Made by a program: the position numbers and the translations under genes. Positions 1-7,934 of a stretch of 8,254 nucleotides of DNA are shown in pieces (position 1 is the first letter of the stretch; the number at the start of each line of letters is the position of its first letter). Source of the stretch: a virus (taxonomy: Duplodnaviria; Heunggongvirae; Uroviricota; Caudoviricetes). The notes under the pieces are model-generated. The model saw nothing but the letters and a program-made list of their open reading frames with translations. It made no database searches and was not told the origin of the DNA. Where the stretch lies: IMG/VR virus record IMGVR_UViG_2663763413_000004. The stretch is one strand, 5' to 3'.

Positions 1-83
1 ACTCAAACAGCCAGAAACCACGGCCACGCATCGTTGCCATTGAATGCGAGCAACGCTGCCATGAAAAAGCAAATCATGCTCAT
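1..83 (-). CDS. possible 5' fragment of a spanin-like gene downstream of the endolysin (unresolved)
   Basis: ATG at 83..81 overlaps the endolysin stop TGA (82..80) as ATGA and encodes a hydrophobic start ([14 protein letters not shown]...), but this frame stops after 26 codons (5..3). Another frame encodes ...CVAVVSGC (lipobox-like) with no canonical start. Does not match my recollection of Rz from DLP12; the window edge prevents resolution. Confidence 0.2.
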
Positions 84-584
84 TGTTGCCCCCACAAACA
101 GACTTCACGCTCAATCTCACGGCGAGTCATCAGCCCTTTCCATTGCTTACCGCCAGCGTATGTCCAGCGCCGTAGCTGATCACATGCGCCTTTGATATCG
201 CCCTGGTTTATTTTGCGAAGAAGCGTCGATGTTCTGAAATTGCCAGCGCCCACGTTGCACGTTGTAAACGAATGAGTAAAGAGCGCCGCGCGTTGTTTCC
301 GGTATATCGACTGTGATGTACGGGTTAATTTGTCTGGCGACAGTGGCAAGGTCTTTATTCAGGAGGGCTTTGCATTCTGCTTCGGTATACGTTTTACCGA
401 GCATGATGTCTTTTCCGGTGTGTCCGTGACATACAGTCCATACGCCAACGATATCTTTGTATGGTATGTAGCTGACACCTTCCAGGCCATCGTCACCACT
501 CGGACCAGTGATGAGCACAGACGCTATGGCAACAGCCCCACCACCAATAGCAGCAGCAATAGCCTTGCGTAATGATGGCGACAT
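80..584 (-). pseudogene. rrrD: SAR endolysin (phage-21 R / RrrD-type lysozyme), disrupted by a +7 frameshift
   Basis: ORF 180..584 gives the N-terminal 109 aa, including a Gly/Ala-rich signal-anchor-release segment ([20 protein letters not shown]), and ends ...[12 protein letters not shown] 80..349 resumes from residue 34 as [18 protein letters not shown]...CLWGQQ in another frame. Joining them gives 165 aa, the length I recall for RrrD. The break coincides with a perfect tandem 7-mer at 251..264. Start ATG 584..582 overlaps the holin stop (TAATG), with GAGG upstream. Confidence 0.85.
251..264. repeat. perfect 7-bp tandem duplication (cacgttg x2) causing the endolysin frameshift
   Basis: Plus strand reads gcc-cacgttg-cacgttg-taaacg. 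Removing one copy restores the coding strand TAC AAC GTG GGC GCT GGC (YNVGAG) and a continuous 165-aa endolysin. Confidence 0.9.
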
Positions 585-1388: not shown

Positions 1389-2501
1389 ATGAAAAAATTA
1401 ACAGTGGCAATTTCTGCTGTAGCTGCATCAGTACTGATGGCGATGTCTGCTCAGGCAGCTGAAATTTATAATAAAGACAGTAACAAGCTGGATCTATACG
1501 GGAAAGTTAATGCCAAGCACTACTTTTCCTCTAATGATGCAGATGATGGTGATACTACTTATGCCCGTCTTGGCTTCAAAGGTGAAACCCAAATCAACGA
1601 TCAACTGACTGGTTTCGGTCAGTGGGAATATGAATTCAAAGGCAACCGTGCTGAATCTCAAGGTTCTTCCAAAGACAAAACCCGTCTTGCATTTGCAGGC
1701 CTGAAATTTGGTGATTACGGCTCAATCGATTACGGCCGTAACTACGGTGTAGCATACGACATCGGTGCGTGGACTGACGTCCTGCCAGAATTCGGTGGTG
1801 ATACCTGGACCCAAACAGATGTGTTCATGACTGGTCGCACTACTGGTGTTGCAACTTATCGTAACAACGACTTCTTTGGTCTGGTCGATGGCCTGAACTT
1901 TGCTGCTCAGTATCAGGGTAAAAATGACCGCACTGACGTAACTGAAGCCAATGGTGATGGTTTCGGTTTCTCCACTACTTATGAGTATGAAGGATTCGGC
2001 GTGGGTGCAACCTATGCTAAATCAGATCGCACTGACGGTCAGGTCGCCTATGGTAAGAGCAAATTCAATGCCTCCGGCAAAAATGCGGAAGTATGGGCTG
2101 CAGGCCTGAAATATGATGCGAACAATATCTATCTGGCTACCACATATTCTGAAACTCAGAATATGGCTACCACATATTCTGAAACTCAGAATATGACCGT
2201 TTTTGGTAATAACCATATTGCAAACAAAGCACAAAACTTTGAAGCAGTAGCACAATATCAGTTTGACTTCGGTCTGCGACCATCTGTTGCTTACCTTCAG
2301 TCAAAAGGTAAAGACCTTGGTGTTCATGGTGACCGAGACTTAGTCAAGTATGTCGATGTCGGTGCTACTTACTACTTTAATAAAAACATGTCCACTTTTG
2401 TTGATTACAAAATCAACTTAATTGACGATAGTAAGTTTACCAAAACAGCTGGTATTGATACCGACGACATCGTCGCTGTAGGTCTGGTTTATCAGTTCTA
2501 A
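1389..2501 (+). CDS. nmpC: outer-membrane general porin, NmpC/OmpD/Lc family (prophage moron)
   Basis: 370 aa. Signal peptide [23 protein letters not shown] followed by AEIYNKD; conserved porin blocks ([49 protein letters not shown]) and the C-terminal VGLVYQF ending in Phe. Divergent from the lysis genes, as in DLP12. Symbol assigned from recall of the NmpC N-terminus. Confidence 0.9.
2135..2194 (+). repeat. perfect 30-bp in-frame tandem duplication inside the porin gene
   Basis: ggctaccacatattctgaaactcagaatat occurs at 2135..2164 and again, identically, at 2165..2194. It encodes the duplicated decapeptide [20 protein letters not shown]. Confidence 0.95.
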
Positions 2502-3158: not shown

Positions 3159-3299
3159 TCATACTCCTGCTCCTGTCAGGGTTTTGGCGTAATTCTTCAG
3201 TATTCGGTAATCGGTCAAAACAGAACCAGGAAAACGATATAAGCGCAGGCGCACCCAGCGGCGGCGAAGACGCTCTGCCATATAAGACTCAAACATCAT
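3159..3299 (-). CDS. ylcG: small nin-region protein YlcG (46 aa)
   Basis: Hand translation: [46 protein letters not shown]. Its ATG (3299..3297) overlaps the rusA stop as ATGA. Missing from the ORF track, presumably below its length cut-off. Identification from position and the recalled 46-aa length. Confidence 0.7.
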
Positions 3300-3662
3300 T
3301 CATCTCCCAGTTCGGTGATGGTCAGCTCCAGCTTCCCACCTTTGGTAACGGGCATCTTCACAACACGGTAATCAACGACCTGAATATCATCCAGCCAGAA
3401 ACCTGCTTTGGTGAGTGCGTCAAAAGCGGCTTTTTGCAGATTATCCAGGTCACGGCGACGGCGATCCGGCATGTGGCACTCAATACGGATTTTCACTCAC
3501 TGGCATAGCCAAGCCGATATCCAGCATTGCGTTTTTAATGATTCGGGCGACGTTATCGCAGTATGCCTGCCCCTCTGCGCTGACGTGCGTGCGCCCACGA
3601 TTATGGCGGTAATAGCGATTATTGCTCGGAGGCCAAGGTAATGTGATGCTGTAGGTATTCAC
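3296..3662 (-). pseudogene. rusA: Holliday-junction resolvase RusA, disrupted by a +4 frameshift
   Basis: ORF 3480..3662 encodes residues 1-55 ([24 protein letters not shown]...LAMPV) and then stops. ORF 3296..3496 encodes the rest ([26 protein letters not shown]...ELGDE) in another frame. Together they give the 120 aa of RusA. GTG start at 3662..3660 overlaps the ybcO stop (GTGA). Confidence 0.85.
3494..3501. repeat. perfect 4-bp tandem duplication (cact x2 on plus; GTGA-GTGA on the coding strand) causing the rusA frameshift
   Basis: Coding strand reads CCA GTG AGT GAA AAT CCG TAT TGA. Deleting one 4-mer gives CCA GTG AAA ATC CGT ATT GAG TGC CAC (PVKIRIECH), the expected RusA sequence. Confidence 0.9.
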
Positions 3663-3949: not shown

Positions 3950-4112
3950 GATTCCTCCTTGCTGCCAGTCGCAACCATTTTTTATCAACCAGGCTGGCGG
4001 TATACCCGAGCAGTGTTGGTATTTCGGATGGCTTCAGCTCAGGTTTACGCTTACGACGATTTGGTACTTTGTAGATGTGTCCGTTCATGATACGAATAAG
4101 CGGTGTAGCCAT
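3942..4112 (-). CDS. ninE: NinE (56 aa)
   Basis: Hand translation: [56 protein letters not shown]. Its ATG overlaps the ybcN stop (TAATG) and its 3' end overlaps the ybcO start by 8 nt. Not in the ORF track. Confidence 0.78.
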   Translation of the reverse strand: MATPLIRIMNGHIYKVPNRRKRKPELKPSEIPTLLGYTASLVDKKWLRLAARRNHG

Positions 4113-4567
4113 TACGCCTCCTGCTTGTCGCGCAGCAGCTGGAACTCGCAGCGCTGCGGAATAGTCAGGTGGCAGCCAATATTCATCGCCCAGGCTTCAA
4201 CCTTACACAGGAAGACATACATCTCTCCGGTATCAAGATCGGAGGTATGGCGTAACGACTGGATAGTAGTGATTTCGCCGGTTACGACATCAACCAGGTC
4301 CTTGGTTTCATAACCGAGGTATGTGTGTTTGAGAGCATCTTTTACCCATGCTGCGGTAGCGAACGATTTCCCCCTGCTGATGAGGTATTCACTGATTTCG
4401 CTGTACCACATATGGCTGAGTGCATTCTGGGAAAGACTGCGTTTCTCACGCCACGGTTTAAGCACCATGCGAAAGCATTTTCCGTCCTCCAGATAAGGCT
4501 GGATCTGCTGGCCGAAAGCGGTGAAGTTGCCGCGATGCAATTTGATGCCATCTTGTGGGAGGTTCAC
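4112..4567 (-). CDS. ybcN: YbcN-family nin-region protein (151 aa)
   Basis: 151-aa ORF with a GTG start at 4567 preceded by GGAGGTG. Matches the recalled length and position of DLP12 ybcN between ylcH and ninE. Confidence 0.8.
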
Positions 4568-4665
4568 GATTCACCTCCGCAGAGGCCAAACGCTGGATGC
4601 AAAAAATCGCAGGTGCATTTCTGCATCTGTGAATGGAGAAGATAGGTTGGATTGTATGTGCGCAT
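4564..4665 (-). CDS. ylcH: small protein YlcH-like (33 aa)
   Basis: Hand translation: [33 protein letters not shown]. Its stop overlaps the ybcN GTG (GTGA). Identified by position and the recalled 33-aa size only. Confidence 0.5.
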
Positions 4666-5050
4666 AAACGTCCCCGTTTAGCGCAGAAGTCACAGGAGTT
4701 GTTCAGGCTCCGGTGATACAATTATGGCGAATTGATTATTCATAATCAAACAAGATAAGGTCTCAAACTTCATGCAAGCCAAGATTTATTTCTGACAGAA
4801 TTATACAAAGAAGCTATTGGTCAGAATCTACTCGGACTGTAAAACATACGCATAACCTTAAGCTCTCACTTTAAGCATTGTTGAAATAATAGCCGTCAAG
4901 TACAACCTTAACCACGACTGGGATATTTCCCTAGCTACCACGAGTTGTACTGCTATTAAACTGCCGTTAAATTCAGTAAGAGAATTTCATCCGATAAGTC
5001 AAGGCATGTAAAACATAAAAATTAACAAGATATTATCATCTGCAACACTA

Positions 5051-6058
5051 TTGTATGGTATGTCAATGGCCATGTCGGTCGGGAGTTGTGCAACACCTGT
5101 CCAGACTAATTTTCCTGGTTACACCCCGGGTGCAGATATCATTAGTGTTTCACCCACCAGAAACCAGGTCGATCTCATTGGTGATGTTGTTTATTCCCAG
5201 ATAAAAGGAACTCGTTCTGTCAGACAGCTTCACATGTCAGTTCTTGTCCCGCGAACAAATGATTTAAAACCAGCCATTATTTATTATCCCGGCGGCGGAT
5301 TCATGTCTTCTGAACATGACAAATTTATTGAAATGAGAATGGCTCTGGCTGAAGCTGGTTTTGTTGTGGCCGCTGTAGAATACAGAACAATTCCTGATAC
5401 ATTTCCAGCACCAGTTGAGGATGGGAAAGCTGCAATACGTTACTTGAGAGAACATGCCAGCGATTATGGGATTGATCCTCAAAGAATCGGAGTTCTGGGT
5501 GACTCTGCCGGTGGATGGCTTGCCCAGATGATGGGAACTACAAATGGTGACAAAACCTTTAATAAAGGTGACTTTCTTCAGCAATCAGCAGATGTTCAGG
5601 CAGTTGCCACACTTTATGGGATTTCTGACTTGTTGAATATTGGCGAGGGGTTCCCTGAATCAGTGCAGGAGGTTCATCGATCTCCTGCCGTAACCGAAGC
5701 CTTAATGATCAATGGCCCTGCATTCAGAAGTTTTGCGGGAGCCCCCATAACAGCGTCAAAAGAAAAAGCGCTAAACGCCAGTCCAATCGGACATATGAAA
5801 GGAGTAAAACCCCCATTTCTTATTATGCATGGTAGCAAAGACACTCTGGTTTCACCTGAGCAAAGCGCCAAACTATTCAGGATGTTGAAGAAGAACGGCG
5901 ATAACGCTGAGTACGTTCTGGTAGAAGGGGCTGAGCATGGCGATAATACATGGTATCAGCCAATTATTATAAACAGAGTTGTTGAGTGGTTTACTAAAAA
6001 CCTGGGAACCCCCATAAAAACCGCTACCCAACAACAAAAAACAAACGCTGACCTGTAA
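5051..6058 (+). CDS. alpha/beta-hydrolase fold esterase/lipase (Abhydrolase_3 / HSL-like family); start uncertain
   Basis: Oxyanion-hole motif YYPGGGF, nucleophile elbow GDSAGG, YRTIPDTFPAPVEDG block, and candidate catalytic Asp (HGSKDTLV) and His (GAEHGD). The track start is TTG at 5051; ATGs follow at 5060, 5066 and 5072, none with a convincing Shine-Dalgarno. An in-frame ATG at 5006 is followed at once by TAA (see findings). Confidence 0.85.
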   Translation: MYGMSMAMSVGSCATPVQTNFPGYTPGADIISVSPTRNQVDLIGDVVYSQIKGTRSVRQLHMSVLVPRTNDLKPAIIYYPGGGFMSSEHDKFIEMRMALAEAGFVVAAVEYRTIPDTFPAPVEDGKAAIRYLREHASDYGIDPQRIGVLGDSAGGWLAQMMGTTNGDKTFNKGDFLQQSADVQAVATLYGISDLLNIGEGFPESVQEVHRSPAVTEALMINGPAFRSFAGAPITASKEKALNASPIGHMKGVKPPFLIMHGSKDTLVSPEQSAKLFRMLKKNGDNAEYVLVEGAEHGDNTWYQPIIINRVVEWFTKNLGTPIKTATQQQKTNADL

Positions 6059-6060
6059 AA

Positions 6061-6085
6061 AGCAGCCCGCACTTATGCGGGCTAA
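6061..6085. terminator. hairpin between the convergent esterase and recombinase genes; likely bidirectional terminator
   Basis: 8-bp stem AGCCCGCA / TGCGGGCT with loop CTTA. On the minus strand it is followed by a T-run (CTTTTTAC); on the plus strand by AACCTATTTC. Confidence 0.5.
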
Positions 6086-6095
6086 CCTATTTCAC

Positions 6096-6122
6096 TCGAT
6101 TCAAAAGAAATTATTTTTAATG
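6096..6122. repeat. direct repeat copy 1 (27 bp, 24/27 identical to copy 2; 15-bp perfect core aaattatttttaatg)
   Basis: tcgattcaaaagaaattatttttaatg, aligned by eye with 8169..8195. Lies between the recombinase stop and the convergent terminator. Confidence 0.45.
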
Positions 6123-6407
6123 GGGGCGTGACCAGCCTCTCGGTGCTCAGATACTTAATGAAGTGGAGTGGCATTCAGGCAAGAGGTTAACATCACCTGT
6201 TCGCCATAACCAAGCACGTGCACAAAGTTTGTTATCAGTGAATTGTTTTGTGATTGGGTATTGTTGAGCTACTAGAGCAAGAATGCCAACATCCAGTGGC
6301 AGTGCCTATAGTAAAACTATAGCTCAGGGCGCTTCGTTCAAGATAGTTAATATCATATTAGTCACTTTACTTTCATACCATAGCACGGTTGAAAAAGTGA
6401 TTATTAC

Positions 6408-7934
6408 TCAAAAATAAATCTCACCATCAACCATATATTTAAGAGTACTTATCGCCTGCTGGGCGGATATTACTTTCATTAAAGGATAGTGTTTAAAAAC
6501 AATGCCATTCATAAAATAGATATCACAGGTTTTATTATCTGTATTAATTATAATTTTTTCGAATATTTTATAGGCAAGTGTACGACATAGCTCTCGCCCA
6601 TTTTTACTGGTTAAATCAATAGCATGAAAATCACCAAGTGAACTCACCCCTTTACTCTTCAAAGTTTTTAATGATACCGAAGCCCTTCGTAATTCCTTAT
6701 CTAATAGTCTTATTTTCTCTGCTATAGCGGTAACTTCAGGCGCGACAGACAATGCAACGATTAAATTATTAATTTTCATCTGAAGCTCAATAATTTTTAA
6801 CTCTAAAGTTTCATTAGCATCTTTCTTGTTTTCAACTGGTTGAATTTTGCTACAATTAAAAAGCAATTCATTAATGATATTATAATCAACCAAATCTCTT
6901 TTTATTGATGGTCTGTCACATCGATGTAATCTTCTCATCGGACAAACATAATAGCCATGCAAACTTCCAGATACCGCATGAACAATCATGGTATTACCAC
7001 AAGCCTCACACTTCATAACTGTTCGAAGTAGATTTATTAGCATAGGATTCTTGCTACTATTGCTAATACCAAAAGGTGCCAACCGAATTTCCTGTACAGC
7101 GTAAAACAAATCATCTGATATGACTCTGGGATAATAGCCAGCGATTTCACTTATCCCTTTCCCTCTTGCACGATATGAAGGTACGCATATACCTATCAGA
7201 GCTTTATTCGCTAATAATTTTTCAATTACAGAAGGTCCCCATGCACTTTCTTTTCCTGAGAAATTCTTTACAGCATGATCATTTAAATACTTGGCTATTG
7301 CATTCAATGAGCGCCTTTCCATCCTGAGTTTAAAAATTAGCTCAATAGTTTTCACCCTGTCGGGGTCTGGAACAAAAGCCGTTCTTTTGTCATCCAATGA
7401 GAGCCATCTCGGACAAGAAGCCGTCATAATCGTGCCTGACTCCAGTGCATCCTGCCGTTTTTTCTTCCATGATAATTTAACCCGACTTGACTTTATCTCG
7501 CTTTCTTCATTTGCCCTTTGTGCTATAAGTATGGCTTTTATTAATGAATATGGCTCATTCAATGAGTCAATATTATAGACTGTATTATCGCAAAGAGTTA
7601 TAACATCAATACCGTGATTCAAAATCAATTTCAGACGCTCAATCGCTTCACCGACTTTTTCTCTTGAAAGTCTGTCCAGACTTTCAACTAACAATGTAGT
7701 CCCTGGCAATATATAACCATGTTCTATAGCATCTAAAAATTCCGAAAAAGCTCCTGATTGTGCATGCTTTCCATTGAATGCGCTTAACCCCAAATCTTCA
7801 TACGTTACGGTATCAAGGTAATAATCACTATTTACCTTTAGCCATTCAGTAATAAGCCTTCTCTGGCGGTTTAATGAATCACCAGACATCTGACCTGGTG
7901 ATGAAAATCGCATATATGCTATGGCTTTTTTCAT
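6408..7934 (-). CDS. ybcK: large serine recombinase (508 aa; resolvase-type catalytic domain, recombinase domain, zinc ribbon, coiled coil)
   Basis: N-terminal AIAYMRFSSPGQ...SLNRQ and LLVESLDRLSRE match resolvase/invertase catalytic motifs (Arg-x-Ser nucleophile region). C-terminal CEAC...YYVCPMRRLHRC is a zinc-ribbon-like cysteine cluster, followed by a predicted coiled coil. AGGTG lies 5 nt upstream of the ATG. Length and locus agree with my recollection of DLP12 YbcK; the symbol is recall-based. Confidence 0.85.
   Translation of the reverse strand: MKKAIAYMRFSSPGQMSGDSLNRQRRLITEWLKVNSDYYLDTVTYEDLGLSAFNGKHAQSGAFSEFLDAIEHGYILPGTTLLVESLDRLSREKVGEAIERLKLILNHGIDVITLCDNTVYNIDSLNEPYSLIKAILIAQRANEESEIKSSRVKLSWKKKRQDALESGTIMTASCPRWLSLDDKRTAFVPDPDRVKTIELIFKLRMERRSLNAIAKYLNDHAVKNFSGKESAWGPSVIEKLLANKALIGICVPSYRARGKGISEIAGYYPRVISDDLFYAVQEIRLAPFGISNSSKNPMLINLLRTVMKCEACGNTMIVHAVSGSLHGYYVCPMRRLHRCDRPSIKRDLVDYNIINELLFNCSKIQPVENKKDANETLELKIIELQMKINNLIVALSVAPEVTAIAEKIRLLDKELRRASVSLKTLKSKGVSSLGDFHAIDLTSKNGRELCRTLAYKIFEKIIINTDNKTCDIYFMNGIVFKHYPLMKVISAQQAISTLKYMVDGEIYF

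Follow-up and report, generated by a model that had tools for sequence, protein, structure and literature searches.

A prophage esterase of Escherichia coli whose signal-peptide leader has lost its start codon

Results

The esterase locus and its prophage

The window, by which is meant the whole stretch of DNA that was analysed (8,254 nucleotides; IMG/VR record IMGVR_UViG_2663763413_000004), is part of a lambdoid prophage of the DLP12/Bievrevirus type from Escherichia coli. It contains an esterase gene on the plus strand. According to the annotation, the neighbours on one side are rrrD, essD, a prophage porin gene (ompC/nmpC type), quuD, ylcG, rusA, ybcO, ninE and ybcN, and those on the other side are ybcK, emrE and replication genes. 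The features at and around the esterase gene are as follows.

4112..4567, minus strand: ybcN, upstream neighbour on the strand opposite to the esterase
4564..4665, minus strand: hypothetical gene of 33 aa, likewise upstream and opposite to the esterase
5001..5004, plus strand: AAGG, Shine-Dalgarno-like, 10 bases before 5015, or about 7 if aligned as the 5' part of UAAGGAGG
5006..5011, plus strand: ATG-TAA hexamer in the 5' untranslated region, a constant part of the leader in E. coli copies
5015..5017, plus strand: ATA, mutated initiation codon (G5017A); ATG in 677/682 E. coli records and in viable phages
5015..5089, plus strand: predicted signal peptide region, residues 1-25 (M/I-KINKILSSATLLYGMSMAMSVGSC), from pattern and hydrophobicity
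5015..6058, plus strand: full-length esterase frame, 347 codons plus the TAA stop at 6056-6058; BD-FAE / Abhydrolase_3 match
5066..6058, plus strand: truncated CDS of 330 aa (MAMSVGSC...), as called by PGAP in UPEC132 (WP_001251751.1)
5078..5089, plus strand: lipobox-like VGSC, with the Cys25 codon TGT at 5087-5089
5111..5113, plus strand: Phe33 codon TTT, against CTT (Leu) in other E. coli copies; second SNP private to the ATA lineage
5504..5506, 5840..5842 and 5936..5938, plus strand: predicted catalytic triad Ser164 (in GDSAGG), Asp276 and His308, from alignment
6063..6084: GC-rich, terminator-like hairpin (core GCCCGCA CTTA TGCGGGC) between the convergent esterase and ybcK genes
6408..7934, minus strand: ybcK, recombinase-family protein of 508 aa, downstream neighbour convergent with the esterase

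As a gene the esterase is not new; hundreds of genomes already carry an annotation for it, and so do phages. The proteins named 'esterase' in DLP12-like prophages and Bievrevirus phages (WP_000700204.1, WP_001535299.1, and gp57 of phage 4A7, YP_009909478.1) are products of the same gene, with 97-100% DNA identity, which occupies the same slot flanked by the recombinase gene ybcK and by ybcN and runs in the opposite direction to the nin-region genes. The window allele differs from these in having ATA instead of ATG at codon 1 and in the substitution L33F, and both differences are common to only four genomes. A literature search found no paper on the E. coli or phage esterase.

Of 5426 complete E. 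coli genomes, 681 match the 1.2 kb surrounding the esterase gene at 95-100% identity; carriage of the esterase is about 13%, O25b:H4-ST131 strains included. The viable temperate phage 4A7 (genus Bievrevirus) shows the same gene arrangement with the esterase included, and a full-length copy with 98.6% identity occurs in seven more phage records (4C10, D2, 1W, 3W, Perceval, PhiR47_2 and a second 4A7 record). The strand, opposite to that of the flanking nin-region genes, and the hairpin past the stop codon give the locus the usual look of phage cargo. With these two features and its presence in eight viable phage records and in the 681 genomes, the esterase gene is a prophage cargo gene, or moron. 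The hairpin at 6063-6084 lies directly 3' of the esterase stop; it was scored on the minus strand with a T-run, and its plus-strand tail is TAACCTATTT. A consensus scan returned no plus-strand promoter candidate in 4666-5014, and the total number of scan matches was that expected from shuffled sequence.

The start region and the lost initiation codon

The bases of the start region are those that an earlier, sequence-only reading of this DNA had described. AAGG (5001-5004), ATG (5006-5008) and TAA (5009-5011) are all present in the window, and the frame stays open beyond the TAA, reading NIKINKILSSATLLYGMSMAMSVGSCATPVQ and then an alpha/beta hydrolase as far as the TAA at 6056-6058. Canonical starts in this frame likewise begin where that reading had placed them, at TTG 5051 (a 335-aa ORF, 5051..6058) and ATG 5060, followed by ATG 5066 and ATG 5072. 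To explain the arrangement, it had proposed either a nonsense change at codon 2 of a frame beginning at ATG 5006 or an unusual start arrangement. No support was found for the latter, and the former is contradicted by intact copies of the gene, which also contain TAA 5009. The ATA at 5015-5017 had been overlooked; it is the true difference between the window and 677 of the 682 records.

The leader lost its start by a one-base change, G5017A, which converted ATG to ATA at 5015-5017. In strains A13, Rb-23, R14 and KC-Dl-1, PGAP annotates a protein of 343-347 aa whose first codon corresponds to window position 5015 and which reads MKINKILSSATLLYGMSMAMSVGSCATPVQ... (MKINKILSS...). The intact precursor from ATG 5015-5017 has 347 aa, MKINKILSSATLLYGMSMAMSVGSC..., with a lipoprotein-type signal. 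When the start region of the window was aligned with those of four other E. coli genomes, the single differing base was 5017 (A versus G), and the hexamer was unchanged. A 61-mer centred on 5017 gave an exact match in 677 of 682 records when it carried ATG; with ATA, as in the window, it gave an exact match in four (UPEC132, YP3, GN02350 and N50). UPEC132 has the same sequence as the window throughout the esterase gene, and there PGAP resorts to ATG 5066 for a product of 330 aa. Phage 4A7, read base by base, has ATG at the equivalent of 5015, preceded by the same upstream ATG-TAA.

The homologues agree with this assignment. ATG-AAA stands at the equivalent of 5015 in all three homologue DNAs that were read (L006, L009 and L010; 74-79% identity), and the more distant homologues as a group (62-79% identity) start at the equivalent ATG-AAA where DNA was read, most of them with a signal peptide. 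This indicates that the leader is real and that its canonical start has been lost: a canonical start is found in the population and in relatives, and a non-start codon in the window copy. The check proposed with the earlier reading, whether homologues begin with M-K/N-IKINK and have a lipobox, gave MKINKILSS...VGSC, with its start at 5015.

The AAGG at 5001-5004 is a Shine-Dalgarno-like element serving the true start at 5015. Its duplex with the anti-Shine-Dalgarno sequence has an energy of -3.2 kcal/mol and lies 9-10 nt ahead of 5015; it is only 1 nt away from ATG 5006, which is too close for that codon. TAA 5009 is part of the 5' untranslated spacer between AAGG and the start at 5015, and is not a lesion. 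The ATG-TAA hexamer was identical, in base-by-base reading, in four other E. coli genomes (three of which have the start ATG intact) and in the viable phage 4A7, and the 61-mer matched exactly by 677 of the 682 E. coli records holds it together with ATG 5015. This invariance within E. coli is uninformative, because all copies are at least 97% identical. In the three homologues at 74-79% identity the hexamer is absent; L006 and L010 have no ATG at -9, and L009 (79% identity) reads ATG AAT AAA ATG AAA ATA in frame. The two strands of the window together hold 12 cases of an ATG followed directly by a stop codon, compared with 16.8 +/- 4.0 in shuffles, which is at or below chance.

Two other roles for the TAA were considered and rejected. 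Translational coupling to an upstream ORF through TAA 5009 found no candidate, as no ORF of at least 20 aa with a canonical start ends there in the window. The pairing of pad and esterase genes in homologues prompted the idea that 4666-5011 is a remnant of a phenolic acid decarboxylase gene ending at TAA 5009; a tblastn search with two decarboxylases against the window returned nothing (best E value 0.076, elsewhere).

Signal peptide and lipobox

The leader has the signal- or lipoprotein-like form that had been recognized from the sequence alone. Under the lipoprotein rule used here (a basic n-region, a hydrophobic h-region, and a lipobox whose Cys falls within residues 15-35), the repaired leader shows K2 and K5 in the n-region, a moderately hydrophobic core (Kyte-Doolittle 1.0-1.45), and a segment, GMSMAMSVGSC, that fits the PROSITE PS51257-type lipobox rule {DERK}(6)-[LIVMFWSTAG](2)-[LIVMFYSTAGCQ]-[AGS]-C at Cys25.

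A set of 120 homologues with 62-99% identity was collected from Dickeya, Pectobacterium, Pantoea, Klebsiella, Kluyvera, Enterobacter, Rhizobium and others. Most of them have an N-terminal signal peptide, and the signals usually end in an AxA-type signal-peptidase-I site. The conserved LPGY motif is preceded by 25-32 residues in 98 of the 121 aligned sequences and by 13-20 residues in 16 of them. On these grounds, export by ordinary signal peptides would be a trait of the whole family. The earlier description of the gene as a normally exported esterase whose leader has no canonical start in the window is therefore retained.

The lipobox Cys is not conserved across the family; 97 of the 121 aligned sequences have Ala, Ser or Thr in its column. 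The Cys is confined to the E. coli/phage clade and the sequences nearest to it (P0002, P0003 and P0005), and Tyr occupies the position in P0004 and in the 90%-cluster representative P0001. Lipidation is predicted to be clade-specific, since the Cys is not kept in the wider family. Under the Lol sorting rule, Ala at position +2 would direct the lipoprotein to the outer membrane. The E. coli copies that were read have the Cys. The Tyr variant was considered as the common E. coli state and rejected: among the matches listed, nearly all records were one base off the window 61-mer 5058-5118, and the single differing base was C5111T in every copy compared. Cys is thus most likely the majority state at this position in E. 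coli, as judged from these matches.

Enzyme family and probable function

The esterase matched the Pfam families BD-FAE (PF20434, 151.4 bits; cutoff 26.8) and Abhydrolase_3 (PF07859, 81.5 bits; cutoff 25). NCBIfam equivalog models all fell short of their cutoffs, so the protein cannot take a specific enzyme name from any of them. Among relatives of known structure, Lip_vut4 (PDB 6nkf, E=1e-36) comes first, followed by a bifunctional Bacteroides GH43-carbohydrate esterase (6mly) and then by acetyl-xylan and carbohydrate esterases (6xyc and 6tkx), all with modest identity to the window protein. With the BD-FAE and hormone-sensitive-lipase-like Abhydrolase_3 esterases it shares PGGGF, GDSAGG and the Ser, Asp and His columns. 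The catalytic motifs are intact, as claimed earlier: PGGGF (residues 92-96), GDSAGG with Ser164, Asp276 and His308 are invariant in the 121 aligned sequences, and GDSAGG, Asp276 and His308 of the window align with GDSSGG, D and H of 6nkf. These residues are expected to form the catalytic triad and the oxyanion hole.

In the close homologues L006-L009, a phenolic acid decarboxylase gene lies immediately upstream of the esterase gene, and on one homologue contig a LysR-type regulator gene adjoins the decarboxylase gene. This adjacency fits a role in the release of hydroxycinnamic acids. Dickeya has the feruloyl esterases FaeD and FaeT, of which FaeD is secreted, through the Out type 2 system (PMC9007343). 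The homologues of the window protein include Dickeya proteins, at 64-69% identity, and one of these (P0080) is named 'ferulate esterase' by its source. FaeD is exported, as the window family appears to be, whereas the E. coli copy has no adjacent decarboxylase gene and has a lipobox instead of a signal-peptidase-I site. From family membership and gene neighbourhood, the protein is most likely a hydroxycinnamoyl or acetyl esterase that would act on plant-derived esters outside the cytoplasm.

The ATA lineage and its second substitution

Across 8.2 kb, exactly two SNPs, G5017A and C5111T (L33F), separate the ATA lineage from KC-Dl-1, its closest sister with ATG. Both lie within the first 100 bases of the esterase gene. 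The column affected by L33F, in the LPGY motif just past the signal peptide, holds Leu in 113 of 121 sequences, and the window is the only one with Phe. By our own arithmetic, the chance that two random SNPs fall within 95 nt of each other in 8.2 kb is about 0.02. Such clustering could reflect relaxed constraint after inactivation, or else a small patch of recombination, and two events do not suffice to choose between them. Apart from the private substitution L33F, the gene has neither frameshifts nor stops in this lineage, and its body thus shows no visible decay. The ATA allele was found in isolates from humans and a dog. Its occurrence in four genomes from several hosts indicates that the variant is genuine and inherited rather than a product of assembly.

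Discussion

In this study, the gene was interpreted as an exported 347-aa prophage esterase with its true start at ATG 5015, which in the window has been changed to ATA by G5017A, the upstream ATG-TAA being incidental. We assign this explanation as a whole a probability of about 0.9. The allele would then be an unremarkable case of a common prophage gene that has been weakened or inactivated, either a strong hypomorph or an incipient pseudogene. Start-codon loss is a common route to either state, and the finding is in that respect ordinary.

A leader severed by a nonsense codon at TAA 5009, downstream of an ancestral start at ATG 5006, is hard to credit. The in-frame sequence of L009 makes a very old extended leader (MNK-MKI...) conceivable. 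However, no copy read base by base lacked TAA 5009, and these copies included intact annotated 347-aa genes and a viable phage; the 61-mer containing it is shared by 677 of the 682 records, so this codon is not what separates the window from functional copies. The AAGG is well spaced from 5015 and crowds ATG 5006, and L006 and L010 keep ATG-AAA at the equivalent of 5015 while having no upstream ATG. Equally hard to credit is the view that a sequencing or assembly error produced the ATA and that the gene is in truth intact. Three small tandem duplications in the window, absent from the 30 best-matching E. coli genomes, suggest that the source sequence may be imperfect, yet four complete RefSeq assemblies, independent of one another and from different hosts, have the same A at 5017 linked to C5111T. 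Very improbable as well is a functional start-stop mini-ORF, in which ATG-TAA would tune ribosome loading on the start 6 nt downstream and perhaps feed re-initiation at the AUA. There is precedent, as start-stops in E. coli yecJ and hslR bind ribosomes and mildly attenuate the host gene (bioRxiv 10.1101/520783), and the hexamer was invariant in the copies examined. These copies are nearly identical to one another, however, and the hexamer is missing from L006, L009 and L010; hexamers of the ATG-stop kind are no more frequent in the window than chance predicts. In comparison with the start-stop mini-ORFs of Meydan et al. (Ribo-RET), the window hexamer has no suitably spaced Shine-Dalgarno sequence of its own, the AAGG being only one base away, and no conservation past near-identical copies.

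A change of location is unlikely, and less so than the foregoing; it is also compatible with start-codon loss rather than exclusive of it. Here translation from ATG 5060, 5066 or 5072 would yield a leaderless, cytoplasmic and still active esterase. PGAP calls the 330-aa CDS from 5066, and a natural leaderless subfamily of about 318 aa, with 72-74% identity, occurs in Klebsiella, Kosakonia, Enterobacter and Pantoea. Its members have 15 residues before LPGY, the same length as in the product from Met18, and the fold can apparently work without export. Against this, the anti-Shine-Dalgarno pairing upstream of the three internal ATGs (-2.1 to -2.8 kcal/mol) is within the window background (-1.8 +/- 2.5), and L33F strikes a conserved residue of the candidate cytoplasmic enzyme. 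A more elaborate form of the idea, in which AUA initiation, perhaps aided by re-initiation from the AUG-UAA 6 nt upstream, combines with starts at Met16, Met18 and Met20 to give a mainly cytoplasmic esterase, is distinctly improbable. If it were true, one SNP in the start codon would be enough to switch the location of the enzyme, and the outcome would resemble the leaderless subfamily of 318 aa that exists in nature.

Under the preferred reading, loss of the ATG need not abolish synthesis completely. Non-canonical initiation in E. coli includes the AUU start of infC. In E. coli reporters, AUA initiation reached 1-2% (GFP) or 0.02-3% (NanoLuc) of the AUG level (bioRxiv 10.1101/063800). With the Shine-Dalgarno element still in place, the AUA may be read by fMet-tRNA at about 0.02-3% of the AUG level, which would give a trace of the normal lipoprotein precursor. 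Some initiation at the in-frame ATG 5060, 5066 or 5072 is also possible and would give a leaderless protein kept in the cytoplasm; the 330-aa product from 5066 would be without the n-region and most of the h-region. The AUA of the window lies at a normal distance from an intact Shine-Dalgarno element, likewise the arrangement in the AUA/AUU reporter series of Hecht et al. Unlike a conserved regulatory start, it is a rare derived mutation of AUG, and nothing suggests selection for it.

The result bears on annotation and on strain comparison. The 330-aa annotation from an internal ATG in four RefSeq genomes hides the loss of the start codon of the exported form, and the N-terminus needs correcting. 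Strains of the ATA lineage are probably loss-of-function for a surface or periplasmic esterase. Apart from the allele, the wider gene may merit study as a probable hydroxycinnamoyl or acetyl esterase lipoprotein that is spread by lambdoid phages.

The window also differs from UPEC132 outside the esterase gene, by three tandem duplications and one SNP that do not occur in the 30 best-matching genomes. A 7-nt duplication at 251-264 causes a frameshift in the lysozyme gene rrrD, a 30-nt duplication at 2134-2193 is in frame in the prophage porin gene, and a 4-nt duplication at 3493-3500 causes a frameshift in rusA; the single-base difference is at window position 5.

Genomic settings of the esterase

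The esterase is found in several genomic settings, among them the following:

L003 (strain Rb-23), 4196-7163, esterase and surroundings
L004 (strain R14), 4147-7140, esterase and surroundings
L010, 399-7113, surroundings of an esterase homologue with 79% identity
L006, 5478-7047, phenolic acid decarboxylase (PF05870) and esterase
L007, 43-1612, the same pair
L008, 3-1575, the same pair
L009, 1315-2889, the same pair

In both Rb-23 and R14, a very large inverse-autotransporter gene follows the esterase instead of ybcK. In R14, ISEc23, an element of the IS66 family, lies immediately 3' of the esterase; the C-terminus of the R14 enzyme is shortened, giving a protein of 343 aa. The homologue in L010 has genes for a serine-protease autotransporter (Peptidase_S6) and a PerC-family regulator nearby, which suggests that a pathogenicity island or plasmid carries this copy. 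The annotated product of L010 has 370 aa and contains the conserved ATG-AAA within its reading frame; its start was probably placed too far upstream.

The homologues in L006-L009, with 74-79% identity, have the phenolic acid decarboxylase gene directly upstream, and in L006 this gene is adjoined by that of a LysR-type regulator. The adjacency suggests a gene pair for hydroxycinnamate-ester utilisation. The E. coli prophage copy of the esterase has lost its decarboxylase partner.

Variation of the esterase sequence

A substitution within the conserved LPGY motif, L33F (CTT to TTT, window 5111-5113), is confined to the four genomes with the ATA start (UPEC132, YP3, GN02350, and N50). Over 8.2 kb, L33F and the start-codon change G5017A are the only two differences between this ATA lineage and KC-Dl-1, its nearest ATG-bearing sister.

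The signal peptide also varies among the homologues. Tyr takes the place of the lipobox Cys in P0001 (VGSY), which represents the 90% cluster of 1454 member sequences to which the E. coli protein belongs, and in P0004 (STGY), a 75% homologue; therefore, some copies are probably exported without lipidation. The signal peptide is absent altogether from a subfamily of about 318 aa with 72-74% identity (P0023, P0027, P0029, P0034, P0041, and P0050), found in Klebsiella variicola, Kosakonia, Enterobacter bugandensis, and Pantoea. Judged from these sequences, cytoplasmic as well as exported versions of the esterase exist in Enterobacterales.

Tandem duplications in the window

The window contains three small tandem duplications:

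251-264, CACGTTG CACGTTG (7 nt), in rrrD, - strand, about 80..584
2134-2193, TGGCTACCACATATTCTGAAACTCAGAATA twice (30 nt, perfect), in a porin gene, + strand, 1389..2501
3493-3500, TCAC TCAC (4 nt), in rusA, - strand, about 3296..3662

The first frameshifts the prophage lysozyme gene rrrD into two ORFs (80..349 and 180..584); it occurs neither in UPEC132 nor in the 30 best-matching E. coli genomes. The second is in frame and adds 10 residues to the ompC/nmpC-type prophage porin (370 aa versus the annotated 360). It is missing from all best matches listed among 916 E. coli genomes, since a 106-nt query maps there to 76 nt only. The third splits rusA by frameshift into ORFs 3296..3496 and 3480..3662, and is not present in UPEC132 when compared with the window. 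Three such duplications within 8 kb are unusual, and may reflect either the sequence quality of the source or a peculiar mutational history.

The window also departs from UPEC132 by one base right at its beginning, with A at position 5 against C in that genome.
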